From NCBI GenBank assembly GCA_034420175.1, contig DAOULP010000083.1, positions 191-64,190 on the forward strand: 64,000 nucleotides of DNA. The letters are read 5' to 3'. The stretch is from Dehalococcoidia bacterium. GTDB taxonomy: Bacteria > Chloroflexota > Dehalococcoidia > DSTF01 > JALHUB01. The translations under genes were made by a program, and so were the position numbers. The notes beneath the pieces were generated by a model that saw only the letters and a program-made list of their open reading frames with translations, had not been told where the DNA came from and searched no databases. Shown in pieces: positions 1 to 46,591 of this stretch. The first letter of the stretch is position 1. The number at the start of each line of letters is the position of its first letter.

Positions 1-1270
1 CGCGACCCATAGCCACGCCGGCGCTGCCAGGACCGCCATGATCGGCGTCACTGGAAGGTGGTATCGAGGCTCGACGAAGAAGACCACGTGCACGGCCGTC
101 CAGGCAGCCAGAGCGGCGGCCAGAGGCCAGCGTCGGCCGTCAGTCGCACCGACCGGCAGCAGAAGGCCCGCCACGGCGGCCGCCAGAACGAAGTAGTAGA
201 AACCATCCGTCCAGCCGCGCAGGACTCCACGCTCTCCCTCGGATAGGAAGGTGGTCTGGCCCCAGGTCTCCGTCAGAGTGACGGCGTGGGCATCGTTGAT
301 GTAGAGGTGGTAGGCCTTGCGGGGCAGGAGGGACAGAGCATCCAGGGGGTGTTGCCGGATGAACTCGCGGCCCAACTCGAAGCCGCGGTAGTAGTCGTGT
401 CGCTCCTGCTCCGTCAGGTCGTCTGAGATGGTGGGAAACACCTCCGCCGGTGGCCAGCCCCATGTCCCCGTGGCCCCCTCATGATTGCCGATCCAGAAGT
501 TGAGCCCGGTGTTGGTTGAAATGGTGGGAACGCCTACCTTGACGGCGTTTCGCACCACCCAGGGCGTCAGCAAAAGGACCGCGGCCATCGCCGCCACGAG
601 AGTGGCGAGGGCCAGCGGTCGCCAGGGCGTCCCCCGGGCCCTCAGGGCGAAGGGAGTCGCGACCAGCAGCGAGAGACCCACCGGCCGGATGAGGGCCGCG
701 ATGCCGATTGCGAGGCCGACGGCCACCCAGTACGGGGCCCAACGGCGGTCCTCAGGGGAGGGCGCGGCAAGCAGGAGGCCGAGGCCCAAGAGGTAGACGG
801 CAGTGAACACCACTTCCGAGTGCAGTTGGGAGGCGTAGAGGATCTGGCTGGGGAAGACCGCGACAGCGAGAGCCGCCAGCAGCCCGGCGACCCGCCCGAA
901 GGCCCGGCTCCCTATCCAGTAGACGAGCCCCGCGGTGAGGGCGCCGAGCACCACGTTCAGCACCTCGCCGGCGACAGGCCTGTGGCCGACCAGCCAGTAG
1001 ACGATTCCCAGGACAGCCGGGTACCCGGGCGGGTAGTAGGCAGTGGCCCCGCCCTCTTCGTTGACATAACCCCGGCCCTCGGCCAGAGAGGCCGCCAGGC
1101 GGTCGTAGTGCCAGGGGTCGAAGAACCAGACGGGCTCTGTCTCAGCGTAGATGATCCAGGCCAGCCGGAGGACGGCTGCCAGGGCAACGATGGCCAGCAC
1201 AGCGAGGACGGTGCCCGAGCGGAGCCGTCGTGGCCACCACTGAGCCAGCTTGAGCCCAGAGACGCCCATC
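1..1270 (-). CDS. Membrane glycosyltransferase, GT39/ArnT/PMT-like (dolichyl-phosphate-mannose protein mannosyltransferase-like). C-terminus runs off the window start.
   Basis: Minus-strand ATG at 1270 (cat at 1268-1270). Open frame continues to position 1 with no stop. Many TM helices and GT-C-type motifs (AWIIYAE..FFDPWHYDRLAASLAEGRGY..YYPPGYP). Absent from the ORF track only because it is edge-truncated. Start ATG overlaps the stop of the next gene (ATGA). Confidence 0.7.
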
Positions 1271-1997
1271 AGCCCTTCAGCGTTGTACGCAGGCGATCGG
1301 GGTAGTCCGTTGTGATGGCATCAACGCCGTAGTCGCACAGGCGGCGCATGTCCTCCACCTCGTTGACCGTCCACGTGTAGAAGGTGAGCTTGCGCAGGTG
1401 AGCCTGGCGCACCACGTCCGCGTCCACTCGAGGATAGAAGACGGATACCCCCTGGGCGTTGAGCGACAGCGCAGAGGCGAAGAGAGAGGCCCAGTCCGTC
1501 AGGTCGACGGTGTTGGTGAGGAGGGCAGCCGGCATGGAAGGCTCCGATGCCCGGTAGCGGGCCACCACCTGTGGCAGGAAGGAATGAACGACGCAGTCGT
1601 TCACCGCGCCCAGGTCGCGGACGACGCGCAGCACCTGCTCCTCTATGTCAAGTTGCTTGATCTCCAGGACCATCAGTGCGCGGCCGCGGGTCAGTTCCAG
1701 CGCCTCCGCCAAGGTGGGAATCGGCTCTCCGGCGAACCGCCCTTCGAACTGGCGGGCGCCCGCGTCCAGCTTCCTGACCTGCGCCAGGGACATCTTGGTG
1801 ACATCGCCCTGGCCGTCGGTCGTGCGGTCCGCCGTAGGGTCGTGGATGAGGATGGGCACGCCGTCGGCTGTGGCGTGCACGTCCACCTCCATGCCGTCGA
1901 CACCTAGCTCGAGCGCGGCGCGAACGCCGGCAAGAGTGTTCTCCGGGGCGTGTCCTTTGCAGGCGGCGTGGGCGATGACGAATGGCTGTGGAGGCAT
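1269..1997 (-). CDS. Glycerophosphodiester phosphodiesterase (GDPD family, UgpQ-like)
   Basis: Translation has FVIAHAACKGHAPENTLAGVRAALELGVDGMEVDVHATADGVPILIHD, the hallmark GDPD HR..ENT / E.D.H motifs. Start taken at MPPQPF (ATG at 1997) with AGGACA RBS. The ORF extends upstream to 2054. Confidence 0.85.
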   Translation of the reverse strand: MPPQPFVIAHAACKGHAPENTLAGVRAALELGVDGMEVDVHATADGVPILIHDPTADRTTDGQGDVTKMSLAQVRKLDAGARQFEGRFAGEPIPTLAEALELTRGRALMVLEIKQLDIEEQVLRVVRDLGAVNDCVVHSFLPQVVARYRASEPSMPAALLTNTVDLTDWASLFASALSLNAQGVSVFYPRVDADVVRQAHLRKLTFYTWTVNEVEDMRRLCDYGVDAITTDYPDRLRTTLKG

Positions 1998-2147
1998 GAT
2001 TAGTGTCCTGCCTTTCGGGTCGGGCTTCGAGCCGCGGTTGGCCGGCAGGCCCATTCTAGGTTAGGGCCAGGCGGCGGACAAGGCAGCCCCTTGAGCCCCT
2101 GCCTGTTTCGTCCGAACGGCTCTTGTCCCACTGGCCGCTGGTCTCAA

Positions 2148-4973
2148 ATGATGGCTGCAACCCTTCGTCGAGGGAAAGCGGCGCGAGGAGGTGAGCGGTT
2201 GGCGAAGAAGACGAGACCGGGCCCGGGCCGCGCCTGGGAAGAGAAGTACCGCGACGTCTGGCGGTGGGACAAGACCGCCTGGGGGACTCACTGCGTGGAC
2301 TGCTACCCCACGAACTGCCCCTACCGGGTGTATGTCCGGGATGGGGTTGTCGTCCGCGAGGAGCAGGGCGCCACCTTCGAGACGGTGGAGGAGGGCGTCC
2401 CCGACATGAACCCCGCTGGCTGCCAGAAAGGCTCCTCCTGGAGCCAGATGCTCTACGGACAGGAGCGCGTCCTCTATCCGCTCCGTCGCGCGGGAGAACG
2501 AGGCGAGGGGAAATGGACCCGCATCTCCTGGGACGACGCGCTGACCGAGATCGCTGATGCCCTCTTGGACGCCATCCAGGAGTCGGGCCCCGAGTCCATC
2601 GTGCGCATCGGCACGCCTGGCGAGGGCGGCACGCAGACCATGGTGCTCGCCGGGGCGGTTCTCGCCCGCCTGGGGGCCACATCGACCGACGTACAGGCGG
2701 AGATCAACGACTTCAATCCGGGCGTCTATGTCACATTCGGCCGGTTTGACCCCGTGCCCAGCAGCGACGACTGGTTCCACTCGGAGCTGCTGCTCATCTG
2801 GGCCAACAACCCCGCCTACGGCTCCATCCCCTGGTACCACTACATCGTTGAGGCCCGCTACCACGGTAGCGAGGTCGTCACCATCGCGCCCGACTACAGC
2901 CCCTCGGCTATCCACGGCGACTCCTTTGTACCAGTGCGCATCGGCTCCGACGCCGCCCTGGCCCTGGCCATGTGCCGCGTCATCATCGACGAGGGCCTAA
3001 TGGACGAGCCCTTCGTCCGCGAGCAGACGGACCTTGGGCTGCTGGTACGAACCGACAACGGCCGCTTCCTCCGTCAGAGCGAGCTCCAGGAGGGCGGCTC
3101 GGACAGCATCTTCCACCTCTTCGATACCCGCGCCGGGCAGATCGCGGAGGCGCCGCGCACGCTTGACCTTGGCGCTCTGGAGCCCGCGCTCGAGGGGAGC
3201 TATGCTGCCACCCTGGCCGATGGCTCATCCGTCGAGGTGGTGCCGGCCTTCGTCCTCCTGCGGCGCCGTCTGGAAGACTATGCCCCGGAGGACGTGTCCG
3301 CTACCTGCGGCGTCCACCCGGAGACGATCCGCGACCTCGCCCGCAAGGTAGCGGGGAGCTGCACCCGCATTCTGCTGGGATGGACTCTGGGTAAGTCCTA
3401 CCATGGCGACCTCATGGAACGGGCCGTGTGCCTGGTGCTGGCTCTCACCGGCAACTGGGGCAAGAAGGGCGCCGGAACCCGTAGCTGGGGCGTCGGCATG
3501 TTCGACGGCATGTTCTTGTGGGGCAGCAAGTCCGGTCCGGGACAGGATGCCACGCGCGAGCTGGTCAAGGGCCAGCAGGCGATGTTGGATGCCGCTCTCT
3601 CGCAAGACCCCAGCCTCACCGAAGAGATCTTGATGACCGAGATGGGCTACGCGGGGTCCCGGATGGGCGGTACCGTGCCCCCCGTCTTCCTCTGGTACCA
3701 CCACTGCGGCTACCGGGAGGCGTGGAACCGTGCTGAGTGGCAAGACCCCTCTATGCGCCGCTCGTTCGACGAGTACTTGCGCGAGGCCATGGAGAAAGGC
3801 TGGTGGGAGGGCAGCGTGCAGCCGCCTCCCGACAAGCCGCCTCGCGTCATCTTCGAGATCGGCGGCAATCTGCTCCGACGCCAGCGCGGTGGCCAGCGGA
3901 TGCTGCTGCGCCACCTCTGGCCCAAGGTTCAGCTCATCGTCTCGGTGGACTGGCGCATGACCACCACCGGCCTCTACTCGGACATCATTCTGCCTGCCGC
4001 CCAGCACTATGAAAAGCCGAACTTCCCGTATACGACGCCCGACGTCATGAACCTCACCCTCTCCGATCGTGCCGTCCCGCCGCCGGGCGACGCCCGCTCC
4101 GAGTGGCAGATCACCCTGATGCTGGCGAAGAAGGTGTCCGAACGGGCAAAGGCGCGCGAGTTCGTTGAGATGCCGAGCCGCATGGGTGTGCCCGTCCGTC
4201 TCGACACGCTTTACGACGACCTCACGTATGGCGGTGCCCTTGCGGAGGACGATGCCGTTATCGACGAGATGGTGCGTGACTCGGTCGTGACGGGCAATCT
4301 GCCCCCCGGGACGACCCTGGAAACGCTGCGAGAGAAGGGCTGGGTGCGCTTCACGGGCTGGGGCCGCTCTCCGATGGCTCTGGCGCAGGCCTCAGACCTG
4401 CTCCCGAACGAGACCCATTCCCCCTTCAGATGGCAGACCGAGAAGAAGGAGCCCTTCCCGACTCTCACTCGCCGCGCCCAGTTCTACATCGACCACGAGT
4501 GGTTCCTGGAGGCCGGCGAGGAGTTGCCGGTGCACAAGGAGACACCGGCGCACGGCGGCAACTACCCGTTCCAGATCACGGGCGGCCACCCCCGCTGGAG
4601 CGTCAACGCCATGAACATGACGAACTGGGTCATCCTGGGAACGCAGCGCGGTCGGCCCACCGTCTACATTAACGATGGCGACGCCCGCGCTCGCGGCATC
4701 GAGGATGGGAGCGACGTGCGTGTCTTCAACGATGTGTCGTCGGTGCAGGTTCAGGCCAGGGTGGCGCCGGCAGTGCGGCCGGGGCAACTGGTCATGTACA
4801 ACGGATTCGAGCCCTACCAGTTCGACGGTTGGCAGGACTTCTCCAACGTGGAGCCGGGCATGGTGAAGTGGCTCCACCTGGCGGGCGGCTACGGCCACCT
4901 GCGCTACCGGGCCCTGCATTGGCAGCCCATACCCATCGACCGGGCGGTGCGGGTCGATGTCGCGCCGGCGTAG
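2148..4973 (+). CDS. Molybdopterin (bis-MGD) oxidoreductase catalytic subunit of the DMSO-reductase superfamily, NarG-like N-terminus. Orphan: no FeS/beta, gamma or chaperone subunit genes adjacent.
   Basis: About 940 aa. N-terminal YRDVWRWDKTAWGTHCVDCYPTNCPYRVYVRDGVVVREEQ resembles the NarG-type His/Cys3 FS0 cluster segment. No Tat signal. Molybdopterin-oxidoreductase-like regions throughout. Start chosen at the ATGATG at 2148; the ORF opens at 2091. Confidence 0.7.
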   Translation: MMAATLRRGKAARGGERLAKKTRPGPGRAWEEKYRDVWRWDKTAWGTHCVDCYPTNCPYRVYVRDGVVVREEQGATFETVEEGVPDMNPAGCQKGSSWSQMLYGQERVLYPLRRAGERGEGKWTRISWDDALTEIADALLDAIQESGPESIVRIGTPGEGGTQTMVLAGAVLARLGATSTDVQAEINDFNPGVYVTFGRFDPVPSSDDWFHSELLLIWANNPAYGSIPWYHYIVEARYHGSEVVTIAPDYSPSAIHGDSFVPVRIGSDAALALAMCRVIIDEGLMDEPFVREQTDLGLLVRTDNGRFLRQSELQEGGSDSIFHLFDTRAGQIAEAPRTLDLGALEPALEGSYAATLADGSSVEVVPAFVLLRRRLEDYAPEDVSATCGVHPETIRDLARKVAGSCTRILLGWTLGKSYHGDLMERAVCLVLALTGNWGKKGAGTRSWGVGMFDGMFLWGSKSGPGQDATRELVKGQQAMLDAALSQDPSLTEEILMTEMGYAGSRMGGTVPPVFLWYHHCGYREAWNRAEWQDPSMRRSFDEYLREAMEKGWWEGSVQPPPDKPPRVIFEIGGNLLRRQRGGQRMLLRHLWPKVQLIVSVDWRMTTTGLYSDIILPAAQHYEKPNFPYTTPDVMNLTLSDRAVPPPGDARSEWQITLMLAKKVSERAKAREFVEMPSRMGVPVRLDTLYDDLTYGGALAEDDAVIDEMVRDSVVTGNLPPGTTLETLREKGWVRFTGWGRSPMALAQASDLLPNETHSPFRWQTEKKEPFPTLTRRAQFYIDHEWFLEAGEELPVHKETPAHGGNYPFQITGGHPRWSVNAMNMTNWVILGTQRGRPTVYINDGDARARGIEDGSDVRVFNDVSSVQVQARVAPAVRPGQLVMYNGFEPYQFDGWQDFSNVEPGMVKWLHLAGGYGHLRYRALHWQPIPIDRAVRVDVAPA

Positions 4974-5372
4974 AGACGGACAAGGCCGGAGCGCAGTACT
5001 CCCGCAAGTAGGCCCAAGACGCGACCATTGACATGGTCAGCGCTGGCGTGCCTTCCACGGCGCTCGGGGGTGTGTGGGCATCGACGGGCCGCCCGGGCGT
5101 CACTGCCGCTCCCGCGAGCACGCCGCTGACGACCTTCGTCCGCTACCCCTGGCACCCGTCCCGGCAGTGCGGGCACGGCGAAAAGCCTGGTTGACACAGA
5201 CCTTTCGCATCGCTCAGTGTGACGGGTGGACCCTTCCTTCAGGGGGCTCCGCCTGCGCTCCGCCGCGGCGGCCGTGGCCAGCGTAGGCGGGCCAGTGTGG
5301 GGTGTGCGCCGGGGTGGCAGGCAAGGCGGGGATCATGGGCTGGCAGGTCAGCGGATGCTTCTGAGACGACGC

Positions 5373-6518
5373 ATGAGCAGGCGCCGTTTCCTGGGCGTTG
5401 GGGCGGCTCTGGCGGCCGTTGCGAGCCTGGGATTGACCTGCGAGCCTCCCGCTCCTTCGCCCTTCGTCTCGGCTCGTGGGCGCACGCTCGGGCAGCGGCA
5501 CCTGAGCTGGGTGTGGCAGTTCTCCCAAGATGGCCCGCCGGAGCAGCTTGTCTCCACTCTGGCTCAGCACGGCCTCGGTCTCCTCCTCAAGACGCACGAC
5601 GGCACCGACTGGATGTCGCGGTATGACACGTCATTCTACGCCGTCTCGGGCCCCGACCAGGTGGCGGTCCTGGCCCGCTACTACGAGACCTACGGCGTGC
5701 CGTTCCACGCCTGGTGCGTGCTCAAGGGAGCTGAGCCGCTGCGAGAGGCCGAGATGTGCGCGCAGGTGGTCGGCGCCGGAGCGCGCAGCCTGACCGCGGA
5801 CGTCGAGCCGCATAACGGCTTCTGGCAGGGCACCGCGCAGGACGCCGCCGCTTTCGGGAGCGAGTTCAGGCGACTGCAGCCCAATGCCACGTTGTTTGTC
5901 TCGGTGGATCCACGGCCCTGGGTGCTGGCCAAGATTCCCCTGGCGGAGTTCGCCTCCGCTGCCCAGGGATTCGTGCCCCAGATCTACTGGGAGACGTTCG
6001 ACACCTCAGAGAACCGCCAGCGGTTCGAGTCCAGCGGGTTCCCGCCCGGCGCCAATGGCATCACCCCCGAGTTCTTGCTGGACGTCAGCGGCGATCTGCT
6101 TGGCAAGTACGGCGTGCCTATTCTACCTGCGGGCCAGGGTGCCTCGGAGGACAGCGACGCCTGGAGGCGATTCGTGGACCACGCCTTTTCGCTGGGAATG
6201 GGCGGGTTGTCAGCGTGGAGGTACGGCGTGACGGGCGGCGACGTGTGGCGTTTGCTGCGAGACGTAGGGCCGCCTCGTCCCAGCAGAGGGGGCAGCGCCG
6301 TAGTCGCCGATACCGGATCGTGCCTAAACGTCAGGGGGGCGCAGACCCTGGGCGCGCCTGTCTTGACCTGCCTGCCCGACGGGACCGGTGTGGCCGTGCG
6401 CGACGGGCCGGCGGAGGCGGATGGGTATCGGTGGTGGCTTGTCGAGGGCGGTGGGACCCGAGGCTGGTCGGCGGAAGGCGAGCCCGGCGGCGTTCGCTGG
6501 CTGGTGCCGCTGCCGTAG
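5373..6518 (+). CDS. Tat-secreted TIM-barrel glycoside-hydrolase-like protein with C-terminal bacterial SH3 (SH3b) domain
   Basis: Twin-arginine signal MSRRRFLGVGAALAAVASLG. Central domain resembles GH-like/DUF4015-type TIM barrels (assignment tentative). C-terminal GSCLNVRGAQTLGAPVLTCLPDGTGVAVRDG..GYRWWLV is SH3b-like. Confidence 0.5.
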   Translation: MSRRRFLGVGAALAAVASLGLTCEPPAPSPFVSARGRTLGQRHLSWVWQFSQDGPPEQLVSTLAQHGLGLLLKTHDGTDWMSRYDTSFYAVSGPDQVAVLARYYETYGVPFHAWCVLKGAEPLREAEMCAQVVGAGARSLTADVEPHNGFWQGTAQDAAAFGSEFRRLQPNATLFVSVDPRPWVLAKIPLAEFASAAQGFVPQIYWETFDTSENRQRFESSGFPPGANGITPEFLLDVSGDLLGKYGVPILPAGQGASEDSDAWRRFVDHAFSLGMGGLSAWRYGVTGGDVWRLLRDVGPPRPSRGGSAVVADTGSCLNVRGAQTLGAPVLTCLPDGTGVAVRDGPAEADGYRWWLVEGGGTRGWSAEGEPGGVRWLVPLP

Positions 6519-6540: not shown

Positions 6541-7671
6541 CTAGGCGGCGGCCAGGACGGCTAGTATCTGATCCGCGTACTCTTGGCTCGGCTCGTCGTC
6601 CGTGAGGATGTCGATGTCCTGGGGCGAGGCTACTCCCAGGCCTAGCTCCACAGCCCGCGCGATCTGCGCCTGCCCGAAGACGGGTCCGTCGCTCACCTCG
6701 GGCGTGGTCCCCCAGTGGCGGAGCAGCGCTACCCCGACGGCGTCCAGCGCGATCCTGTCGGTAGCGGCCAGCACGACCTCCGCCGGCACTCTCGTGCCCT
6801 TGTCCGGCCCCTCTGTGGTGAAGGCCTCCACGCCGTCCAGAACGATGAACTCCGGGGTGTAGGCCGTATTGATCTCGGCGATCATCTCGCGCTGGCGGGG
6901 CGAGGAGTGCAGCTCGGTCATGTAATTGTGCGCCTGCCCCGGCACCGAACGGGCCACCAGGCCCACGGCATTCTTCAGCGACATCGTGAAGTGGCCGCCG
7001 AATCGGTGCGTCTTCAGGTTACAGGTTTGCACCACGGCATCCACCTGGCTCAGCAGGCGGGGCACGGCGAAGCCATCCGCCCAGTGGCTCTCCAGCGGCC
7101 GGAACAGGTCCCAGCCGTTCTCATCCAGCTCGTCAAAGGGCACCGTATCGAGACCCATCTCCCGCGCCAGCGCGACGACGCCGGTCGCCTCCATCACCGA
7201 CCGAGTCTGGCCCATTCCGCTCCGGTCGCCAACCGTCACGTGCGACGCCCCCTCGTTGAGCAGCCATTCCGCCAGGGCGCGCAACGTGTCGGGATGCGTC
7301 GAACCCGGCGACGGGTCGGCGCTGTTGAGGTTTGGCTTCAGGAGCACGCTCTTGCCGCGCATCCCGTCCGGTGACAGCAGGCGCAGCGCCCGCCGGACTC
7401 CTTCGGGGCGATCACTCGTCTTGACGAAGGCAACCCGCGACATCTCTCTCCCCCCTTCGGCGGCAGTGGGTGCGGTGGTGGGCGCTGGGGTGGGAGTGGC
7501 GGTCGGCGACGTTGTCCCGCCTCCACAGGCGGTAACGACAGGCGCCGTCGCAGCGAAGATGCCCAGGCCCGCCATGCCCCGCAGCACGTCGCGCCTGCCG
7601 ACTTTGCGCCTCGATCCGTGCGAGCCAGCCGTGCGGTCACCCGCCGCTGACGAGCTTGAGAACCGAGTCAT
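6541..7671 (-). CDS. DUF362 domain protein with Tat-type lipoprotein signal
   Basis: N-terminus RRDVLRGMAGLGIFAATAPVVTACGG (Tat motif plus lipobox Cys), then a Thr/Pro-rich linker. Rest matches DUF362 (VLLKPNLNSADP...CNLKTHRFGGHFTMSLKN). Start at MTRF (ATG 7671), 4 bp after the MFS gene stop. The ORF itself extends to 7878. Confidence 0.65.
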   Translation of the reverse strand: MTRFSSSSAAGDRTAGSHGSRRKVGRRDVLRGMAGLGIFAATAPVVTACGGGTTSPTATPTPAPTTAPTAAEGGREMSRVAFVKTSDRPEGVRRALRLLSPDGMRGKSVLLKPNLNSADPSPGSTHPDTLRALAEWLLNEGASHVTVGDRSGMGQTRSVMEATGVVALAREMGLDTVPFDELDENGWDLFRPLESHWADGFAVPRLLSQVDAVVQTCNLKTHRFGGHFTMSLKNAVGLVARSVPGQAHNYMTELHSSPRQREMIAEINTAYTPEFIVLDGVEAFTTEGPDKGTRVPAEVVLAATDRIALDAVGVALLRHWGTTPEVSDGPVFGQAQIARAVELGLGVASPQDIDILTDDEPSQEYADQILAVLAAA

Positions 7672-7675
7672 GCCG

Positions 7676-9151
7676 CTATTCGGCCCCTGCGGACGCCGAC
7701 TCTTCCATCGCCGGCTTGCCTGCCGCCACGGGCCTGCCTGGCGCCCGCCCTTCGTCCCATTCGGCGGCCCGCCGGGCCGTCTCTCGTTCTCGCCCCTCCT
7801 CGAGCGAACGGTCGAGGACGCGGAACGCCGGCATGAGCGCGAATATGAGCACTGTGGAAACAAGGAACAGCATGGCACCCACCGTCACGACAGGCGGCGC
7901 CCCAACGGACTCGGCGGCCACGCCCGCCGGCACGGCACCGAGCGGCATGAGGCCAAACGTCATCATCATGACGCTCATCACGCGGCCTCGCACCTCGTCC
8001 GGAATGACAAGCTGAATGGCCGTGTTGTTGACGGTCATGACGACCATGGAGCTGAAGCCCACGACGGCCAGGAACGGCAGCGCGAGCAGGAACCATGGGG
8101 ACAGGGCGAAGAGCGCCAGGAAGCCGCCGAAACCCAGCGCGCCGCCCAGCAGCAGCCTGCCCTTCCTGGGATAGGCATCCAGGTTCGCGATGATGAGGGC
8201 GCCGATGAGCCCACCGGCGCCGGCGGCGGCCTGCAACGTGCCGAATCCTTCCGAGCCGACGTGCCAGACCCTGTCCGCAAAGACGGGCATCAGCGTCTGG
8301 TAAGGCATGGCGAACATCACGGGCACGGTGGCGAAGAGGAGCAGGCCGAGCAATAGCGACGAGTTCTTGATGTACCGAACGCCGCCCACGAAATCCTCGA
8401 GGAACGTGAACTCTCGCTCTCGGACAGGAGGCATGGGGGGCAGCGCATACGTGGCGACGACGGCGAAGGTGTAGAAGGCTGTGCAAACGATGTAGGTGCC
8501 GCCGATGCCGATAGGATGCACCAGGATACCGGCCATGGGTGGCGCTATGACGCGGCTGGCATTCATGGCGGCGGTGCTGAGCGAGATGGCGTTCATCAGT
8601 TTGTCGCGCGGGACGAGCATGGCCACCAGCGCCTGTCGGCCCGGCATGTTGAAGGAGAAGGCCGCTCCTGAGAATGTGGACATGGCCGCCAGGTGCCAGA
8701 ACTGGATCGCGTCTGTGATGATCAGGACAGCGATGACGCTGTTGGACAAGACAAGTGCGAACTGGGTGATGAGCAGTAGCCGTCGCTTGTCGACCCGGTC
8801 CGCCACCACGCCACCAACCGGTGAAAGAAACAGCATGGGAACTGCGACGAAGGCCATGAGGTATCCCAGCAGGGCGGCGTTGTCCCATTTGTCCTGGACC
8901 AGCCACCCCCTGATGATGATCATCATGTTCATCCCGAAGAAGAAGCCGATGTTGCCCGCGAATAGGAAGGAGAAGTCCCGGTTCCCGGAGAGGGAAGAGA
9001 ACGTCTGTCGCCAACCCGTCAGGGGTATCGCGCCGCTCTGGAGAGCGCGACGGGCCTCCGGGTCCATACGCGGCGGTGGCTGCCCCGGACGGCCAGTCCC
9101 CATCCGGTCTGGCCGGCTGCGGGGCTCTCCATCGCGCTTGTCTTCGGCCAT
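7676..9151 (-). CDS. MFS transporter (EntS/MFS_1-like)
   Basis: About 12 predicted TM helices. MFS signature region GGVVADRVDKRRLLL. Glycine-rich membrane protein. Confidence 0.8.
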   Translation of the reverse strand: MAEDKRDGEPRSRPDRMGTGRPGQPPPRMDPEARRALQSGAIPLTGWRQTFSSLSGNRDFSFLFAGNIGFFFGMNMMIIIRGWLVQDKWDNAALLGYLMAFVAVPMLFLSPVGGVVADRVDKRRLLLITQFALVLSNSVIAVLIITDAIQFWHLAAMSTFSGAAFSFNMPGRQALVAMLVPRDKLMNAISLSTAAMNASRVIAPPMAGILVHPIGIGGTYIVCTAFYTFAVVATYALPPMPPVREREFTFLEDFVGGVRYIKNSSLLLGLLLFATVPVMFAMPYQTLMPVFADRVWHVGSEGFGTLQAAAGAGGLIGALIIANLDAYPRKGRLLLGGALGFGGFLALFALSPWFLLALPFLAVVGFSSMVVMTVNNTAIQLVIPDEVRGRVMSVMMMTFGLMPLGAVPAGVAAESVGAPPVVTVGAMLFLVSTVLIFALMPAFRVLDRSLEEGRERETARRAAEWDEGRAPGRPVAAGKPAMEESASAGAE

Positions 9152-9415
9152 TTCAGTCTGTCCTCGATTGATGTCTCAGCGGGCAGTGGCGGGCCCGCGA
9201 CAGCCCGACGGTGCCGGACGGGGCGGGCAGCATGGCTCGCTGGCACCCGCCAGGTGTGGGATCCATTCGGATGGTGGGCTTGCCTCTTGCCGGGTTCAGA
9301 AGCAGGGGCTCATGCTGGGCTGCCATTGTATCATGCTAGGCGATATCTAACGTCCACGTCAAGGTGAGGTTTGGCGCGCGAAGGGCGCCGGACGAGGGCC
9401 GCCGGCTGGCGCCAT

Positions 9416-10132
9416 CTACTGGCTCCCGCTGGGGTCCAGTAGCCCCGGGATGGGCAACTGGCCGGGCGAGGGTACCCCCTTCTCGTTGACCTCCACCGCC
9501 TCGCTGAGGATTTGCCAGACGCCCTCGCCCGAGACGTTGTGGCAGCTCATGCAGTTGCCCCGATACGTCCCGACGAAGACATCGCTGAAAAGGTGCGATG
9601 GATGGACGATGTCCCTCAGGGAGAGGGGGACCAGAAGCCCCAGCCCCTCGCGGTCCCCGGTGCCGGCGGCGTGGCAGGTCAGACAGACGGACACATTGGG
9701 CTCATCGGTGAGGCCCATGGGAGTGCCGTCGCGGGCCGCATCCGGGTGGTGCCTCCCCCGCGCCTCGGCCCGCTCGTGGGCCTCGAAGCCCAGCGTGTAC
9801 TTGCCGGTATCAGGCTCCACCAGGTGGTGGCAGGCAGGGCAACCTCGCCTCACCTCGAAAGCAGCGGCGTCCACGCCTGCGTCCTCGTCCGCATCAGCCT
9901 CCGTTTCGTCTCCTTCCTGGTCGTCTTCATCTTGTTGTCTGCCTTCATCCTCATGGTCGTCCTCTTCGCCGTGCTCTGCTGAGTTCGCCGGCGTGGAGAC
10001 GGTGGGGCGGCTCTGGGTCGTAGGTGAGCCGGCAGCCGGCTCCCCCCCATTGCAGGCCGAGGCGCTCAGGCCCGCGAGCATGAGAAGGCAGATGAGTACT
10101 GCCAGACAGCAGTGGGTCCGCATCGATTGCAC
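9416..10132 (-). CDS. Triheme c-type cytochrome lipoprotein with acidic low-complexity linker
   Basis: Signal peptide ending LAGLSASAC (lipobox-like). Three CxxCH motifs: CPACH, CLTCH, CMSCH. A 40-aa Asp/Glu-rich linker (EHGEEDDHEDEGRQQDEDDQEGDETEADADED). Confidence 0.7.
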   Translation of the reverse strand: MQSMRTHCCLAVLICLLMLAGLSASACNGGEPAAGSPTTQSRPTVSTPANSAEHGEEDDHEDEGRQQDEDDQEGDETEADADEDAGVDAAAFEVRRGCPACHHLVEPDTGKYTLGFEAHERAEARGRHHPDAARDGTPMGLTDEPNVSVCLTCHAAGTGDREGLGLLVPLSLRDIVHPSHLFSDVFVGTYRGNCMSCHNVSGEGVWQILSEAVEVNEKGVPSPGQLPIPGLLDPSGSQ

Positions 10133-10307
10133 CCTCCCTTAGCTTCGCCGCTGCACTGCCGGCCGGGCCACGCACGCTTGCCCCGACGGCGGGCGGCGCC
10201 GCCATACTCGGCACGATACGCGCTGGTGGTGATAGAGGGAAGCACCTTCTGTCGGAGCGGGAGACATCTGCCGCCGCTGGCTCCGGATACACCGGGGAAG
10301 GGTGCCG

Positions 10308-10979
10308 CTAGTGGGCGAAGGGCTCCGTGGCGGCCGTCTCTTCGGACCAGGCACCGCGGCCGATGAGGGGCACGAAGCGGCAGTCGCCGAGCTTGCGGAC
10401 GGTCGTCCCGCTGGGGGTCTTCGTGACGTGGAGAAGCTGCTGCACCCGGCGCTCGCCGACCGGGATGACCAGCCGCCCGCCGAGATTCAGTTGCTCGAGC
10501 AAGGGTCGGGGCACCCGCGGCGCGCCGGCCGTCACCAGGATGGCGTCGTACGGGGCGCTCTCCGGCCAGCCGAGGGCGTCCGCAGCCGTGTGCACCTCGA
10601 CGTTTCCGTAGCCCAGCTCCTCGAGGCGACGACGCGCCCCCTCCGCCAGCTCCGGCACGCGCTCCACCGTCACCACGTGCGCCGCCAGCTCGGCCAGCAG
10701 CGCCGTCTGGTAGCCGGAGCCGGTACCCAGCTCCAGGACCCGCTCGTCGCCGTGCAGGTGGAGGGCCTCGGTCATCATAGCCACCATCAGGGGCTGGGAG
10801 ATGGTCTGGCCGTGCCCGATGGGGAGCGGCCGGTCGTCGTAGGCAATGAGACGGAGGTCACGAGGTACGAAGTGCTCGCGGGGAACGCGCGCCATGGCGT
10901 CCAGGGTTCTCTCGTCGTGCACTTCGTAGCGCAGAGACCGGACGAGGTTCTCGCGGGCGGCGCCGTAGTCGATGGCCAT
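10308..10979 (-). CDS. pcm: Protein-L-isoaspartate O-methyltransferase
   Basis: Classical PCMT motifs: HGQTISQPLMVAMM, VLELGTGSGYQTALLAEL, DAILVTAGAP. Confidence 0.9.
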   Translation of the reverse strand: MAIDYGAARENLVRSLRYEVHDERTLDAMARVPREHFVPRDLRLIAYDDRPLPIGHGQTISQPLMVAMMTEALHLHGDERVLELGTGSGYQTALLAELAAHVVTVERVPELAEGARRRLEELGYGNVEVHTAADALGWPESAPYDAILVTAGAPRVPRPLLEQLNLGGRLVIPVGERRVQQLLHVTKTPSGTTVRKLGDCRFVPLIGRGAWSEETAATEPFAH

Positions 10980-11137
10980 GTCCCCCTTCGCGTCCCCTCG
11001 AAGCCAGGGGGCATCGCGCCCCTACCTTAGCACACCCGAAAGGACCCTCCAAAGGGCGGCGCGCGTGCTACAATTGCCTTCCGTCGCCGGCGCATGGTGA
11101 CCGGGAGGGCTCGGGCGCCGAGGGCGGGGGCTGCGCG

Positions 11138-11881
11138 ATGGCACGTCGATACTGGGTCGGCACCTCCGGCTGGGTCTACCCCCACTGGCGGGGCACCTTC
11201 TACCCGGCGGACCTCGCCGGCAGCCGCTGGCTCGACTTCTACACCGGCCGGTTTCCCACCGTCGAGATCAACGCCACCTTCTACCGCCTGCCGCAGGAGA
11301 AGACGTTCGCCGGCTGGGGCCGAAAGGTCCCGGAAGGCTTCCGCTTCGCCGTCAAGGCCAGCCGCTTCATCACCCACGTCAAGCGACTGAAGGATTGCCG
11401 GGAGCCGGTCGAGACGTTCCTGGGCCGGGCGCGTGCGATGGACGAGAGCCTGGGGCCGGTCCTCTACCAGATGCCCCCCAGCTTCCGTCGCAATGAAGAC
11501 AGCGAGGCCGTGCTGGTCGACTTCCTGTCCCTTCTGCCGCGGGACCTCCGGCACGTCTTCGAGTTCCGGCACGACTCCTGGTTCAACGCGGAGGTCTTCG
11601 CCGTCCTGCGGTTGCACAACGTGGGGTTCTGCGCCTACCACATGGTGGACAAGGAGACGCCCGTCGAGGCGACGACGGACTTCGCCTACGTGCGGTTCCA
11701 CGGCAGCAGCTCGCTGTACGGCGGCTGCTACCAGGAGGCGGAGCTACACCAGTGGGCGGAGCGCATCCGCGACCTGCCGGAGGACGTGCGGGACGTCTAC
11801 GTCTACTTCAACAACGACGCTCACGGCTTCGCCGTCCAGAACGCGCGGGAGCTGGCGGGGCTGCTGGCCGGCGGGGGGTAG
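11138..11881 (+). CDS. DUF72 (UPF0759) family protein
   Basis: YWVGTSGWVYPHWRGTFYP...TVEINATFYRLP...FAVKASRFITH matches the DUF72 signature. Confidence 0.85.
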   Translation: MARRYWVGTSGWVYPHWRGTFYPADLAGSRWLDFYTGRFPTVEINATFYRLPQEKTFAGWGRKVPEGFRFAVKASRFITHVKRLKDCREPVETFLGRARAMDESLGPVLYQMPPSFRRNEDSEAVLVDFLSLLPRDLRHVFEFRHDSWFNAEVFAVLRLHNVGFCAYHMVDKETPVEATTDFAYVRFHGSSSLYGGCYQEAELHQWAERIRDLPEDVRDVYVYFNNDAHGFAVQNARELAGLLAGGG

Positions 11882-12304
11882 GGACACCGGCCTGAACGAT
11901 GGTGGCTGAGCAACACAGAGGTGCTCGTCATGTCCTCTGCCTAGCGACGCCTTCGGCGGCCGCCAGGACGGTATTTCCAGATGTCCTCTCCGACGCGCAG
12001 CCACTTGGGATCTGGCCGGCCGCTGGCCCCTAGTGTGCCATCCGGCTGTAGGTACTGGTGGACAACTGCGACAAGCTCACGTTGCCCCTGACGTTGATGG
12101 AAGTAGGCTACGATCTGGCTGTGAGTGCAGTAGGGTGACCCCAGGTTGGCGGCGCGACTCCGGTTGAGATGATTCTCCTCGCGGACGCTGCTCTGAAGAC
12201 CGCCGCGAAGCAGTCGATGATATAATTGACTTGTGTTGAAAGCCTGTCGTATCCTTCGAGCCCCAACGTACTCTACGGTCATCTGCTAGACGAGGGCCAA
12301 GGTC

Positions 12305-12655
12305 ATGAATCCAGCCATCGAAATCGAATCCGTTGCGCGCTCCTACTTGGTGGGTGAGCGAACGCTCTCCGAGCTGGAGGACTGGCTTGCGCCGAACTTG
12401 CAGTTCCTGTTCCAACTGGACGCGTCGGCCTTCGCCTCGCGTCTCGCCGCCCGAATAGAGGGGGCCATCGCCGACATGGATGCTGAGAACCTTGGTGAGG
12501 ACCACGTGCGGGACTCCATTCGGGAACTCCTGTCAGCACAGTCGCTTGCCAACCGCCTGATAGTAGCGACCTTGGGTTCTGACCCTAACGATGTGGCCGA
12601 CACGGCATTCAGTTCCAACAGCTCCAAGGACCCGATACCTGTGGCGGTGGCTTAG
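12305..12655 (+). CDS. Hypothetical protein (116 aa), in a lower-GC patch
   Basis: Clean ORF with an ordinary amino-acid composition. No recognisable domain. Convergent with, and overlaps by 4 bp, the next ORF. Confidence 0.4.
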   Translation: MNPAIEIESVARSYLVGERTLSELEDWLAPNLQFLFQLDASAFASRLAARIEGAIADMDAENLGEDHVRDSIRELLSAQSLANRLIVATLGSDPNDVADTAFSSNSSKDPIPVAVA

Positions 12656-13113
12656 CTGGTCCCCGCGGGCGGTGGTCCAGCCTGCCGCACCAAGTTGTAC
12701 GTCAGCCTGAATGGCATCCGGGTGACGAACTGCTCATTCAGGAAGACATCGAACCAGTAGACCCCCTCTTGGTCGAACTTCGTCTGGGCCTGCGCCACGA
12801 GGTTCGCGCCTCGGTCTTCCCCTTCAAGCATCAGTGAGTGCTCCAAGAGATCTTTTCGAAGCCCGGACGGCTGCTCCTGGACTATCCTCAGGGTTTGGCG
12901 TCCTCGAGCGCTCCCTGACTTGAACGCTAGGGCGAACCACACCGTGTAGGAGACGGGGGGCAAAGGGTCCGGCATTTCAGTGCCTACGATCGTGTGGGTC
13001 AGGCGGTCAATTAGCCGGATCACGGACAAGACCCCGTCCTGCTCGCGAAGCACGCGCTCGCAGATGACTGCCATCTGAAGATAGGGTCCTCCCGGGATTG
13101 ATTGGGTCGCCAT
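12652..13113 (-). CDS. Hypothetical protein (153 aa), in a lower-GC patch
   Basis: Clean ORF with ordinary composition. No recognisable domain. Confidence 0.4.
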   Translation of the reverse strand: MATQSIPGGPYLQMAVICERVLREQDGVLSVIRLIDRLTHTIVGTEMPDPLPPVSYTVWFALAFKSGSARGRQTLRIVQEQPSGLRKDLLEHSLMLEGEDRGANLVAQAQTKFDQEGVYWFDVFLNEQFVTRMPFRLTYNLVRQAGPPPAGTS

Positions 13114-14848: not shown

Positions 14849-16693
14849 CTACATGTGCTCCTTCACCTTCTCGGCCAAACGGCGGGTGAAGCCGACGGTG
14901 GCGGCGATGTCGTCCAGGCTGGCCTCGCGGATGCCCTTCACGGAGCCGAACTTCCGTATCAGCGCCTGCTTCCGCTTCGGCCCGATGCCCGGCACCGAGT
15001 CCAGCGCCGACCGCATGCCCGCCTTCTGCCGCACCTTGCGGTGGTAGGTTATGGCGAACCGGTGCGCCTCGTCGCGGACGCGCTGCAGGAGGTAGAGGGC
15101 CTGCGAGGTCCGAGGCAACACTACTGGATCGGCCTCATCGACCAGGAAGAGCTCCTCCTGCCGCTTGGCCAGGCCGGCCAGGGGCACGTGGCCCACGGCT
15201 TGGTCGCGCATGACGTCGTGGGCGGCGCTCACCTGCCCCTTGCCCCCGTCGACGATGACCAGATCGGGCAGGGCGGCCCAGCCGTCGCCGCCTGCAGACT
15301 GTTCTGAAGTCCGGACGGTCTCGGCCGACACCCGCTTGAACCGGCGGCGCAGCACCTCGGCCAGCATGGCGAAGTCGTTGGCGCCCTCGACCGTCTTGAT
15401 GCGGAAGCGGCGGTACTCGGCGGGCCGGGGGTTCCCGTCGACGAAGACGACCATGCTGCCCACCGCGGACGTTCCCCCGATGTTGGAGACGTCGTAGCAC
15501 TCGATGCGCCGCGGCGGTTGGGGCAGGTTCAGCTCCTCTGTCAGCTCCTCCAGGGCGGCCCGTGTCTTGCCGGCGTCGGCCAGCCACTTGACGCGCTCCA
15601 TCTCCAGCGACTCGCGGGCGTTGTCCGTGGCCATCGCCACCAGGCGGCGCTTCTCGCCCCGCTGCGGGATCAGGAGCTGCATGGGGCCGCCTCGGCGCTG
15701 GGCGAGCCAATCCCCGATCAGCGCCTGTTCGCTGACGGCCAGGGGCAGGACGACGCGCCGGGGGACGTAGGTCGCCGATTCGTAGAACTGCTTGAGGAAG
15801 CTGCCCATGATCTCGGCGTCCGCCTCCTCCTGGGTGCCGTCCAGGGTGAAGTGGTCGCCGCCGATCATTTTGGTGCCCCGGATGAAGAAGACCTGGACGC
15901 AGGCCTCGCCGTTGGCGCGGGCCAGGCCGAAAACGTCCTCGTCCACGGGCCGGGTGTAGGCCGTTACCTGCTTCTCGGAGACACGCTCGATGGCCTGGAT
16001 CTGGTCGCGGAGGGAGGCGGCCCGCTCGAAGTGGAGGGCATCGGCCGCTGCCTCCATGCTGGCCCGGAGGTCGCGCACCACCTCGTCGGTGCGGCCCTCC
16101 AGAAAGAGGATGGTCTGGCGGATGACGTCGCCGTATTCCTCCTTGGTGCAGTAGCCGGTGCAGGGGGCGATGCAGCGGTGGATGTAGTAGTCGAGGCAGG
16201 GGCGCGGGTCCTTGCCGGTAATGGTCTTCGTGCACGAGCGCCAGGGAAACAGCTTCTTGACGATGTCCAGCGTCGTCCGCACCGAGGAGGCGCTGGCGTA
16301 GGGCCCGAAGTAGCGGGTGCCGTCGCTCTCGACGCGGCGGGTGATGTAGACGCGGGGCCAGGGGTCGTTGAGGTCCACCTTGAGGTACGGGTAGTGCTTG
16401 TCATCCTTGAGGCGGATGTTGAAGTACGGCTGATGACGCTTGACGAGGGTAGCCTCGAGATGCAGGGCCTCCTGAGGCGTGTTCGTCACGATGTAGTCGA
16501 AGTCGGCCACGCTGCTCGAAAGGTTCCGCGTCTTGGGCTCGAGGCTGCGCGCCGACCCGAAATAGGAGCGCACGCGGCTGCGCAGGTTCGCGGCCTTTCC
16601 CACGTAGAGGACCTGGCCTTGGGCGTCGCGCATGATGTAGACGCCAGGCCGGGCAGGCAGGGCCCGGAGCTGATGGGCGAAGCGTGTGGCCAT
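14849..16693 (-). CDS. uvrC: Excinuclease ABC subunit C
   Basis: N-terminal GIY-YIG domain (PGVYIMRDAQGQVLYVGKAANLRSRVRSYF). UvrBC-interaction and RNaseH-like domains. C-terminal HhH2 (VPGIGPKRKQALIRKFGSVKGIREASLDDI). Confidence 0.95.
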   Translation of the reverse strand: MATRFAHQLRALPARPGVYIMRDAQGQVLYVGKAANLRSRVRSYFGSARSLEPKTRNLSSSVADFDYIVTNTPQEALHLEATLVKRHQPYFNIRLKDDKHYPYLKVDLNDPWPRVYITRRVESDGTRYFGPYASASSVRTTLDIVKKLFPWRSCTKTITGKDPRPCLDYYIHRCIAPCTGYCTKEEYGDVIRQTILFLEGRTDEVVRDLRASMEAAADALHFERAASLRDQIQAIERVSEKQVTAYTRPVDEDVFGLARANGEACVQVFFIRGTKMIGGDHFTLDGTQEEADAEIMGSFLKQFYESATYVPRRVVLPLAVSEQALIGDWLAQRRGGPMQLLIPQRGEKRRLVAMATDNARESLEMERVKWLADAGKTRAALEELTEELNLPQPPRRIECYDVSNIGGTSAVGSMVVFVDGNPRPAEYRRFRIKTVEGANDFAMLAEVLRRRFKRVSAETVRTSEQSAGGDGWAALPDLVIVDGGKGQVSAAHDVMRDQAVGHVPLAGLAKRQEELFLVDEADPVVLPRTSQALYLLQRVRDEAHRFAITYHRKVRQKAGMRSALDSVPGIGPKRKQALIRKFGSVKGIREASLDDIAATVGFTRRLAEKVKEHM

Positions 16694-16809
16694 ACCACTT
16701 CCATTCTAGAAGAGGTAAGGGCCTTCCTCAACGAGCCGAATCTCGCGTAGCGCGCGCCCGCGCGCGAGCCGGCTAAAGGACTGCGCTGGCGAGCCGAAGC
16801 TTGACATAG

Positions 16810-45900: not shown

Positions 45901-46591
45901 AAGCGATGGTCCTGACCCTTGCGCGCAGCAAAGAGAGTGGGCGCACGACCGAAAGCGCGAGCATTGCCACCGCGGCGGCCGCTGCAAGGAAGGCAGCAGT
46001 TGCCGATCCCACCAACAGCCAGAGTGTGATGTCTGCCGAGCGGTCCGCCGCGGCCCGCTCGGCGGCCAGCATCTCCTGCTGCCGGCCGGCCTGCCGGTCC
46101 AGACCTGCTAGCTGCGCCTCGGCCTCTGCCCATAGCTGTGGGTAGTACTGCTGGGCCACCGCGATCCTCGTGGCGATGTCGGCTGTCGCGGCGGAGTCAA
46201 CGATTGCGTCTACTGCCTGACTCGTTTGATCCAACTGCTCAAGGAACCCGTCGATGGCGGCGACTCCGTCCGCGTCGCCTAGGGCGATCAGACCCGTCCG
46301 AGCTCGATCGAGCTCGTCGATCCGCTGTTCGTCCTCTTGTCGCGCCGCCTGGACGTAGGGAGTCGCGTCTTCTGCAAACACGGCGGCGGTGACCATGGTG
46401 GCGCCGCGGAAGGCCTGAGCACGGGCGTTCTCCATTGAGGCAACCACCTCTGACCTCCGCTCCAGCAGGTCATGCTGGTGCCGGTCGTCATTGGCCCGCC
46501 AGACGGCTGCCAACCCCACGGTCGCCAGCAGGAGCGTGAGCAGTGCCCCAGCCAGGAGGGCTCTGCCCCGGACGGATCTCCAGATCAGCAT
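42959..46591 (-). CDS. Multidomain membrane c-di-GMP signalling protein: periplasmic sensor, HAMP, 2x PAS, GGDEF, GAF, HD-GYP
   Basis: Start at MLIWRSV (ATG 46591); the ORF extends to 46684. HAMP. PAS linkers DITERRRMEEALRESEE. GGDEF motif RYGGDEF. GAF. HD-GYP motifs (HD...HHERWDGTGYP). Confidence 0.9.
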   Translation of the reverse strand: MLIWRSVRGRALLAGALLTLLLATVGLAAVWRANDDRHQHDLLERRSEVVASMENARAQAFRGATMVTAAVFAEDATPYVQAARQEDEQRIDELDRARTGLIALGDADGVAAIDGFLEQLDQTSQAVDAIVDSAATADIATRIAVAQQYYPQLWAEAEAQLAGLDRQAGRQQEMLAAERAAADRSADITLWLLVGSATAAFLAAAAAVAMLALSVVRPLSLLRARVRTIASGNLDASAEVSGPEELASLARDFNDMVAERKRAEAALRHKTHDLGERVKELNCLYRLSNLLQEPRATLEAALGGAVQLIPPSWQYPDVACARITVEGQEFRSVSFDRTTWGLAAPISVGGNRVGSVEVYYRERRPDADEGPFLKEERSLIEAIAERLGEFTERRRAADALRESEERYRSLVEASPDAITLTDLDTSVIMCNEQAARLQGFESVEDLLSSARNALDFIAPEDRQRAIENARKTLESGTARNIEYTLLRKDGTRFAGELSASVVTDTDGRPHAFTAVTRDITERRRMEEALRESEERARLIVETANDALVSMDPDGLITGWNVQAEATFGWPRSLALGRRMADTIIPPDHREAHERGLKHFLKTGEGPVLNQRIEMTALHRDGHQFPVELAIWPVRSGATVTLNAFVRDITERKLLEETLREQVRRDPLTGVLNHGAIVGELRRLISGRSDGALHAVAMADVDGLKATNDAYGHQVGDAVLLAVAGTLSRDGALVGRYGGDEFLALLPGADRTAAECYRDAVLSALADTGLTDPETGAQVGIAASLGLVVYPTEADEIEELVKLADDEMYAAKRQRPVASARGRVAHRLGSQRAAKLVGEIAPLLTSPSDLGEKLRLVAHRLSVGAGYDGVNFRVYGHPSEPPTTQAAYSGASEEAIEMWNREHRRAADHPLRQTLERLQRPIIIDDVRTDQRLTAGERELLGSAGLRSALVAPMIWRGELIGSLSVASKRGAAFTPLDGDFTMVVAAQVTAMVRMATLVDDLQSASTGLAEARVETVMLLAAAAEAHDRTTGSHLRNVRCLAEALACDLGQSEEDASELGVAAVLHDIGKIRVPDVVLASTGRLTREEWELMKHHTTWGYEFLIGRPDFDLAATIARSHHERWDGTGYPDGLAGDAIPEAAAIVAVADSFDAITSDRPYRPARSVAAAAREISACSSEQFSPRVVEALMHLRRQGMLPALRTNDGQEDAAA

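Follow-up and report, generated by a model that had tools for sequence, protein, structure and literature searches.

Ethylbenzene dehydrogenase (EBDH) of Aromatoleum aromaticum, a periplasmic enzyme (PMC8840923), provides in its catalytic alpha subunit EbdA the closest characterised relative of the protein considered here. EbdA and several other characterised alpha subunits of the type II dimethyl sulfoxide (DMSO) reductase family, namely S25dA, CmdA, SerA, ClrA, DdhA and PcrA, are encoded with their partner subunits and are all listed as periplasmic (PMC10100899). Sterolibacterium denitrificans, the host of the steroid C25 dehydrogenases (S25DH), harbors eight alpha paralogs, of which alpha1, alpha2 and alpha3 were active with the beta3 and gamma3 subunits and the chaperone SdhD (PMC6016249), and its beta/gamma and chaperone genes are fewer than its alpha genes (PMC6153880). 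Most environmental EBDH-like sequences were reported to group with ahyA, whose product, the putative alkane hydroxylase AhyA of D. oleovorans, is known from proteomics and not from enzymology (PMC7803848), and proteins that exceed 40% identity to CmdA and AhyA were reported from a metagenome-assembled genome (MAG) of Dehalococcoidia (bioRxiv 10.1101/400804). Here we describe a gene for an alpha subunit of this kind in a 64 kb stretch of DNA from a Dehalococcoidia bacterium (assembly GCA_034420175.1, contig DAOULP010000083.1, positions 191 to 64,190), hereafter called the window. An earlier note on this DNA had read the gene as a short, partnerless and NarG-like molybdoenzyme. We consider it probable that the product is a cytoplasmic catalytic alpha subunit of the EbdA type, and that it relies on a beta subunit whose gene lies at another genomic locus.

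The two Pfam domains detected in the protein (Table 1) place it in the Mo/W-bis(pyranopterin guanine dinucleotide) (Mo/W-bisPGD) superfamily, also known as the DMSO reductase or MopB superfamily. Among the NCBIfam models, the best match was TIGR03479 (type II alpha subunits), with 906.7 bits over model positions 40-912 of 913, which narrowly misses the curated cutoff of 984.75. The more specific models failed their thresholds, with 813.7 bits against a cutoff of 2000 for the EbdA equivalog NF042978 and 228.3 bits, in four fragments, against 1084 for the NarG equivalog TIGR01580. Models for stand-alone enzymes of the NasA/NasC/NarB type failed as well (NF047855, 71.6 bits against 1100; NF041323, 53.2 bits against 1000), and the protein is not a member of a characterised stand-alone clade such as that of NasA, a membership that would have refuted the earlier note; the NasA/NasC/NarB enzymes also differ in having a Cys ligand to Mo in place of the Asp found here. 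In a sequence search of the PDB, the top match was EbdA (2ivf_A; E 8e-234, 782 bits, residues 24-939 against 57-974), with 40.7% identity over 914 aligned positions, followed by PcrA (467 bits, 30% identity), NarG (182 bits, 19% identity) and NxrA (139 bits).

The predicted structure leads to the same neighbor. An AlphaFold model built on a 109-sequence alignment reached a mean predicted local distance difference test score (pLDDT) of 86.1 and a predicted template modelling score (pTM) of 0.89, and a shallow model from a 16-sequence alignment (mean pLDDT 56) was discarded. When the model was compared with the PDB by Foldseek, EbdA was covered end to end, with template modelling scores of 0.92 relative to the query (TMq) and 0.95 relative to the target (TMt) and a root-mean-square deviation of 2.4 Å. 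PcrA was second-best (TMq 0.85, TMt 0.89-0.90), and NarG reached a TMt of just 0.60 because this protein, about 300 residues larger, contains extra insertions. The length of about 940 aa had been regarded as short for both NarG and EbdA-type enzymes; for the latter the argument fails, since a wrong length had been assumed for EbdA, whose PDB chain comprises 976 residues, while PcrA has 899 and the homologs span 916-958 aa. A truncated NarG-like enzyme that lost some 300 residues together with its partners, which was the reading of the earlier note, shares with our protein the type of FS0 cluster motif, but the typical length, the complete coverage of EbdA and the failed NarG equivalog all speak against it. 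This reading is refuted by the family-model scores, the PDB sequence search and Foldseek, and we leave it next to no probability; EbdA is by far the closer relative. What the protein does have in common with NarG is a cytoplasm-facing position (by prediction for our protein), the lack of a functional signal for twin-arginine translocation (Tat), the FS0 ligand type and an Asp ligand to Mo, whereas NarG differs in its length of about 1245 aa and in being always encoded with narHJI. PcrA (4YDD) is comparable in size, belongs likewise to the type II alpha subunits and acts as an alpha-beta complex; it differs by its Tat signal, its periplasmic location and its oxyanion substrate, and EbdA is closer to our protein.

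The cofactor sites were assessed in an alignment of 110 distinct full-length paralogs with EbdA. The N-terminal His/Cys cluster segment pointed out in the earlier note (aa 38-66) was borne out as the one that carries the predicted FS0 ligands His48, Cys52 and Cys57, with Cys92 as the fourth (Table 1). These three positions correspond to His82, Cys86 and Cys92 of EbdA; the His is found in 103 of the 110 paralogs and both Cys residues in all of them. The homolog alignment (A2) shows no variation at Cys52 and Cys57 and little at His48 (at least 90% conserved), and more than 150 columns are invariant across 109 homologs of 58-89% identity. The predicted Asp ligand to Mo and its Lys partner also align to EbdA, the role of this Lys in holding the Asp monodentate having been described (PMC6153880). 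The earlier reading as a molybdoenzyme catalytic subunit is retained, here as one of the Asp-ligated, FS0-bearing type II. The Mo-bisPGD and FS0 sites look complete. The substrate pocket differs from that of EBDH, since the active-site residue His192 is replaced by Pro157; S25DH also lacks an equivalent of this His (PMC6153880). In sequence and in the predicted model, the protein is thus a complete alpha subunit of the EbdA type, of full length and within the type II DMSO reductases, which resembles EbdA in its whole-length fold, its FS0 ligands of one His and three Cys, its Asp and Lys pair and its length.

The uninterrupted open reading frame (ORF) of 941 aa called in the earlier note is real, with a GC content at third codon positions (GC3) of 0.86, similar to that of neighboring genes, in a window of 62-69% GC. 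Its true start is probably the TTG at 2199 rather than the ATG at 2148 because of the spacing of a preceding GGAGG motif, the coincidence of TTG 2199 with the position at which the homolog P0001, 89% identical, starts (P#### denotes individual homologous proteins and L### related loci), the lengths of the homologs considered for this choice (916-931 aa) and the predicted disorder of residues 1-25 of the 941-aa version, which have a pLDDT below 50 in the model from 109 homologs. The isolation of the gene amid unrelated signalling and envelope genes could also be taken to mean that the break-up of an operon left it behind as a remnant, decaying or silent. We hold this to be very improbable, as the frame is intact over 2.8 kb, its GC3 is that of its neighbors, all cofactor ligands are kept along with the invariant columns, and a strong ribosome-binding site precedes the likely start.

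A further claim of the earlier note, that the protein lacks a Tat signal and faces the cytoplasm, is supported, the location by prediction. No twin-arginine motif followed by a hydrophobic h-region was found in any frame of positions 2041-2260, a region in which the top 12-residue hydropathy is 0.18 as against 1.47 in a Tat-bearing paralog; between the alpha start and the divergent GDPD gene there are only 93-144 nt. Paralogs of 38-52% identity from related loci serve as an internal control, as they bear canonical S/TRRxFLK Tat signals (e.g., MRPISRRTLLKGAGGAAVALTL), and no Tat signal was found in any member at least 53% identical to our protein, with or without a beta gene next to it. Because the signal is absent, the protein is predicted to be cytoplasmic, and this is a real difference from the characterised relatives, since all of those are listed as periplasmic (PMC10100899).

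The second difference concerns the partners. All negative results for the window refer to its 64 kb. A six-frame scan of the window for ferredoxin motifs of the CxxCxxCxxxCP type gave no match, and tblastn searches of it with EbdB-like beta, EbdC-like gamma (PF09459) and NarJ-like delta (PF02613) sequences taken from related loci gave a best E value of 0.2. Pfam annotation of 20 window proteins returned only signalling, envelope, repair and transport genes and no partner gene. The absence of a NarH-like FeS subunit and a NarJ-type chaperone, noted earlier for the immediate surroundings, thus extends to the whole window, as does that of an EbdC-like gene, and the alpha gene, unlike that of EbdA, has no adjacent ebdB, ebdC or ebdD, nor, unlike the type II family in general, a beta gene of the NarH/EbdB type beside it.

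Relatives of the protein are numerous. More than 100 proteins of 916-958 aa with 58-89% identity were found in the protein database, all from metagenomes or MAGs, and a scan of contigs, limited to one genome per species, returned 78 loci with a top match of 82% identity, so that the genome of the window lies outside this set, again all from MAGs, which are labelled as Dehalococcoidia/Chloroflexota, Binatia, 'delta proteobacterium' and Myxococcota. The distinct full-length alpha genes counted in 80 loci number 110, a locus often having several and a MAG at least four, as against only 38 full-length beta genes, with gamma genes in seven loci and delta genes in nine. Judged by sequence, our protein belongs to a large, uncharacterised radiation of Tat-less EbdA-like proteins in uncultured Dehalococcoidia/Chloroflexota and Binatia-like MAGs.

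Within this radiation, we defined the clade of our protein as those proteins at least 75% identical to it and examined 15 contexts. A neighbor-joining tree places the protein within a clade of 75-82% identical proteins, with a sister branch (L018 and L020, 65-66% identity) in which a beta gene lies directly upstream. In 13 of the 15 contexts, including the window, the alpha gene is an orphan (the others being L001, L002, L005, L006, L007, L008, L009, L048, L083, L084, L086 and L087), flanked on either side by kilobases of unrelated genes, and the neighborhoods differ from one another; a paralogous beta-alpha pair is located about 4 kb from the orphan in both L008 and L009. The orphan state reported in the earlier note therefore holds, and it results neither from mis-assembly, as that note had allowed, nor from a peculiarity of one genome, because the lone layout recurs in 12 further independent contigs. 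The lone position is typical of the clade. Two contexts are different. In L085, a 345-aa Fer4_11 beta gene lies 71 nt upstream of the gene for P0025 (76% identical), a protein that nests within the orphan clade in the tree. In L088, four genes of one strand, separated by 52, 89 and 68 nt, follow each other in the order alpha-beta-alpha-alpha, so that one beta gene accompanies three alpha genes whose products are only 54-76% identical to one another; the middle of the three alphas, P0034 (76% identical), owes its place in the clade to identity and was outside the tree. Since members in L085 and L088 are beta-linked, the clade has not lost its connection with beta subunits. The electron partner, described as unclear in the earlier note, is consequently less obscure than was claimed, given that two members of the same clade lie directly behind an EbdB-like beta gene.

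We propose that the alpha subunit would not be self-sufficient and would dock onto a four-cluster beta subunit of the EbdB/NarH type from another locus, one beta serving several alpha paralogs. Electrons would then pass from Mo through FS0 to the clusters FS1-FS4 of the beta subunit, and the diversified alpha subunits would act as substrate-specificity modules, with further subunits being possible. This proposal draws on the greater conservation of beta and the excess of alpha over beta genes, the beta links within the clade and its sister branch, the beta-alpha pairs near the orphans of L008 and L009, the MAGs that hold separate pairs and the Sterolibacterium precedent. Beta sequences share a median pairwise identity of 63%, as against 53% for the alphas, with beta the higher in 89% of 300 comparisons, and the L085 beta is 75-84% identical to beta subunits that adjoin alphas only about 54% identical to our protein. 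Moreover, two MAGs that hold an orphan also carry Tat-less alpha-beta pairs elsewhere (L046 in the MAG of L005, and L044 in that of L048). S25DH1-4 are alike in that the alphas outnumber and share beta and gamma, with some alpha genes apart from these (PMC6016249, PMC6153880); they differ in that S25dA has a Tat signal (reported for alpha1), in the proposed periplasmic location of the enzyme (PMC6016249) and in their use of a heme b gamma subunit. This likeness was drawn from published descriptions, and the only link by label is an automated JGI name, 'steroid C-25 hydroxylase alpha subunit', on the close homolog P0002.

Several points weigh against this proposal. Coverage of the genome is the 64 kb of the window, so a beta gene in this organism is assumed; no NarJ-like chaperone gene is nearby, delta genes being rare in the radiation at large; and the 13 contexts with mutually unrelated neighbors and no neighboring beta gene would also fit a self-sufficient protein. 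Such a single-subunit cytoplasmic enzyme could exchange electrons through FS0 directly with a soluble carrier such as ferredoxin or flavodoxin, as in NasA/NarB- or FdhF-like enzymes, or could catalyze a redox-neutral hydration in the manner of acetylene hydratase. Single-subunit cytoplasmic members of the superfamily do exist, and acetylene hydratase and FdhH are among the PDB sequence matches. The transfer of a gene that works alone would also fit the distribution of orthologs of 75-82% identity over MAGs labelled Dehalococcoidia, Binatia and Myxococcales. On the other hand, no stand-alone member of the Asp-ligated type II clade is known to have been characterised, those listed in PMC10100899 all being multi-subunit, two clade members and the sister branch are directly beta-linked, many Tat-less beta genes occur in the host MAGs, and the models for stand-alone types (NasA, NasC, FdhF) scored just 53-148 bits. 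We therefore regard a self-sufficient enzyme as unlikely. A still bolder version, to which we give a slim chance, is that the clade of at least 75% identity is the first type II catalytic subunit that dispenses with a NarH/EbdB partner, through FS0 and ferredoxin or by redox-neutral hydration, as a one-gene module that spreads between phyla.

The labels themselves deserve comment. Orthologs of 75-82% identity come from MAGs labelled Dehalococcoidia/Chloroflexota, Binatia, Myxococcales and 'delta proteobacterium' (L018, L020, L007, L008 and L048 as against L005, L006 and L009), which may reflect either horizontal transfer of single alpha genes or unreliable taxonomic labels of the MAGs.

As to the chemistry of an alpha subunit that uses a beta encoded elsewhere, we suggest, more speculatively and by analogy with EbdA, CmdA and S25dA, a water-dependent and O2-independent hydroxylation of alkyl C-H bonds (R-H + H2O -> R-OH + 2e- + 2H+), with a hydrocarbon, terpenoid or lipid-like compound as the putative type of substrate. 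The grounds for this suggestion are the nearest characterised relatives, the diversity of the paralogs and the catabolic genes found near some relatives, which include acyl-CoA dehydrogenases, (enoyl-CoA) hydratases, CoA ligases or transferases, short-chain dehydrogenases/reductases (SDRs) and a glycyl-radical enzyme with its activase. AhyA and CmdA, which we liken to our protein by description only, are also EBDH-like alpha subunits of anaerobes. Hydroxylation is nevertheless extrapolated from relatives at only 41% identity, and the replacement of His192 by Pro counts against it. The same architecture, with beta supplied in trans, could instead serve the cytoplasmic reduction of an oxyanion or oxide such as perchlorate, chlorate, selenate, nitrate or DMSO, an alternative that overlaps with the favored reading because it differs in chemistry only. 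It could appeal to PcrA as the second-best match in both structure and sequence, to the mixture of reductases and hydroxylases in the type II clade (PMC10100899) and to the missing EBDH-specific His192. Yet EbdA is closer than PcrA or NarG in both identity and score, dozens of divergent paralogs per lineage would fit a diversity of organic substrates better than a few oxyanions, and acyl-CoA dehydrogenases, enoyl-CoA hydratases, CoA ligases, SDRs and a glycyl-radical enzyme occur in related loci, all of which makes the reduction of oxyanions decidedly unlikely in our opinion.

Related loci also yielded observations on location and maturation. L043 contains a gamma-beta-delta-alpha operon (7425-12763) with a Tat-less alpha and an EbdC-like gamma without an obvious signal peptide, which suggests a fully cytoplasmic alpha-beta-gamma enzyme, and 2.5 kb away lies a second alpha paralog with a canonical Tat signal (15258-18170), so that cytoplasmic and periplasmic versions are present in one locus. 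An N-terminal motif, MF(G/T)ASL..L.(A/D)LQ, was found in alphas of L030 (9929), L032 (73, 3192 and 8699) and L043 (9932), and not in the clade of our protein. The loci with this motif also have NarJ-like delta genes, which adjoin the alpha in three of the five cases, and the motif may be a chaperone-binding tail comparable to the N-terminus of NarG. A fusion of MobB, a protein of bis(molybdopterin guanine dinucleotide) synthesis, with the Zn-binding domain FmdE (about 364 aa) adjoins Tat-less EbdA-like alpha/beta genes in L026 (7031-8125) and eight other loci (e.g., L017, L022, L057 and L066), in which NarJ-like delta genes are rare; it may be a dedicated cofactor-insertion factor for the Tat-less radiation. 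Pairs of radical-SAM/SPASM genes lie beside Tat-less alpha-beta pairs in eight loci (e.g., L004/L009:6130-8549 and L019:2892-4136, both on the minus strand), for which a maturase, a peptide modification or a function like that of anaerobic sulfatase maturases are possibilities. Neither the fusion nor the radical-SAM/SPASM queries from these loci gave a match in the window by tblastn. Directly upstream of the P0025 beta-alpha pair, L085 encodes a glycyl-radical enzyme (pyruvate formate-lyase-like plus Gly_radical) and a radical-SAM activase (1182-3569 and 7975-8871), and in between are genes for a CoA ligase, an acyl-CoA dehydrogenase, a MarR regulator and an SDR; this region looks like an anaerobic catabolic island for hydrocarbons or aromatics.

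The genes around the alpha gene are listed in Table 1. The GDPD gene reported in the earlier note was found again on the upstream side. This gene and a PMT_2-like gene, both upstream, are the only conserved neighbors of the orphan orthologs, and they connect the window with two loci, L001 and L005, the latter labelled Dehalococcoidia. The pair was considered as a functional partner and rejected; it is shared only with these two closest relatives and is regarded as lineage synteny. The product of the downstream gene had been described as a Tat-secreted TIM-barrel protein. A Tat-type signal, MSRRRFLGVGAALAAVASLGLTC, is indeed present after an internal Met and ends in a lipobox-like LGLTC, but the TIM barrel found no support in Pfam; the C-terminal part is Trp/Gly-rich and one weak homolog (38% identity) was found in L051. 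Further neighbors are DUF362, a major facilitator superfamily (MFS) transporter, a small cytochrome c-like protein, DUF72, a haloacid dehalogenase (HAD) hydrolase and UvrC, followed farther out by PAS/GGDEF/EAL/histidine-kinase signalling genes and polysaccharide genes. The true start of the DUF362 gene is probably later than annotated because its ORF overlaps that of the MFS transporter, and DUF362 was dropped as a functional neighbor, as it recurs only in L076 (12850-14055, minus strand), that is, in two of about 80 loci, which is probably a coincidence. The ORF with cytochrome-like matches is found on the downstream side of the molybdoenzyme gene at a distance of 4.4 kb, and the two have no apparent connection. 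The large sensor histidine kinase is flanked by proteins of the PAS/GGDEF/EAL/HD-GYP type (28197-30698 and 42959-46684).

Table 1. Coordinates of the alpha-subunit gene, its predicted sites and other genes of the window
Feature	Position	Strand	Remarks
GDPD gene	1269-2054	-	upstream of the alpha gene
Open frame	2091-4973	+	without interruption
Molybdoenzyme ORF as called in the earlier note	2148-4973	+	ATG start, 941 aa, N-terminal tail disordered; EbdA-type Mo-bisPGD catalytic (alpha) subunit
Shine-Dalgarno-like GGAGG	2187-2191	+	before TTG 2199 with a 7-nt spacer; read from the sequence
Likely true coding sequence	2199-4973	+	TTG start, 924 aa
FS0 [4Fe-4S] segment, aa 38-66	2259-2345	+	WRWDKTAWGTHCVDCYPTNCPYRVYVRDG; His48, Cys52 and Cys57 in an H-x3-C-x4-C pattern
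Cys92, fourth predicted FS0 ligand	2421-2423	+	motif NPAGCQKG; aligns to EbdA Cys127; Cys in 110/110 paralogs
Molybdopterin oxidoreductase domain, aa 107-661	2466-4130	+	PF00384, E 1.1e-35, 123.8 bits, above cutoff
Pro157, site of EBDH active-site His192	2616-2618	+	Pro in 76/110 paralogs, His in 0/110
Asp188, predicted Mo ligand	2709-2711	+	aligns to EbdA Asp223; Asp in 110/110 paralogs
Lys416, predicted to keep the Asp ligand monodentate	3393-3395	+	aligns to EbdA Lys450; Lys in 110/110 paralogs
Molybdopterin dinucleotide-binding domain (Molydop_binding), aa 808-888	4569-4811	+	PF01568, E 1.1e-15, 58 bits, above cutoff
Tat-signal lipoprotein-like protein	5226-6518	+	430 aa, downstream of the alpha gene; no Pfam match
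DUF362 ORF	6541-7878	-	overlaps the MFS transporter ORF by about 200 nt
MFS transporter ORF	7676-9151		
238-aa ORF	9416-10132	-	weak, sub-threshold multihaem cytochrome c matches (Paired_CXXCH_1, MtrC/MtrF domains, cytochrome c7)
Sensor histidine kinase	34639-40161	+	very large, 1840 aa, at least 7 PAS domains

The existence of the family is not new, since CmdA/AhyA-like genes in Dehalococcoidia and the grouping of environmental sequences with ahyA have been published. In the open-access literature, we found no description of a Tat-less EbdA-like clade or of orphan alpha subunits in Chloroflexota or Binatia, and our literature search likewise found none of an excess of alpha over beta genes or of a conserved orphan clade among EbdA-like genes. 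For the gene in the window, the outcome is mostly a clarification, in that a supposedly short and partnerless NarG turns out to be an EbdA-type subunit of ordinary length, and its orphan state is less surprising because a ready explanation with a precedent exists.

The cytoplasmic radiation with many alphas and few betas is the point worth following. If its members are indeed O2-independent C-H hydroxylases, these lineages would possess a modular toolkit in the cytoplasm, in which few beta subunits serve many alphas and which could attack recalcitrant hydrocarbons, terpenoids and sterol-like compounds without oxygen. Such enzymes would be relevant to biocatalysis, since S25DH already makes 25-hydroxyvitamin D3 (PMC6016249), and the toolkit would bear on carbon turnover in soils, aquifers and sediments.

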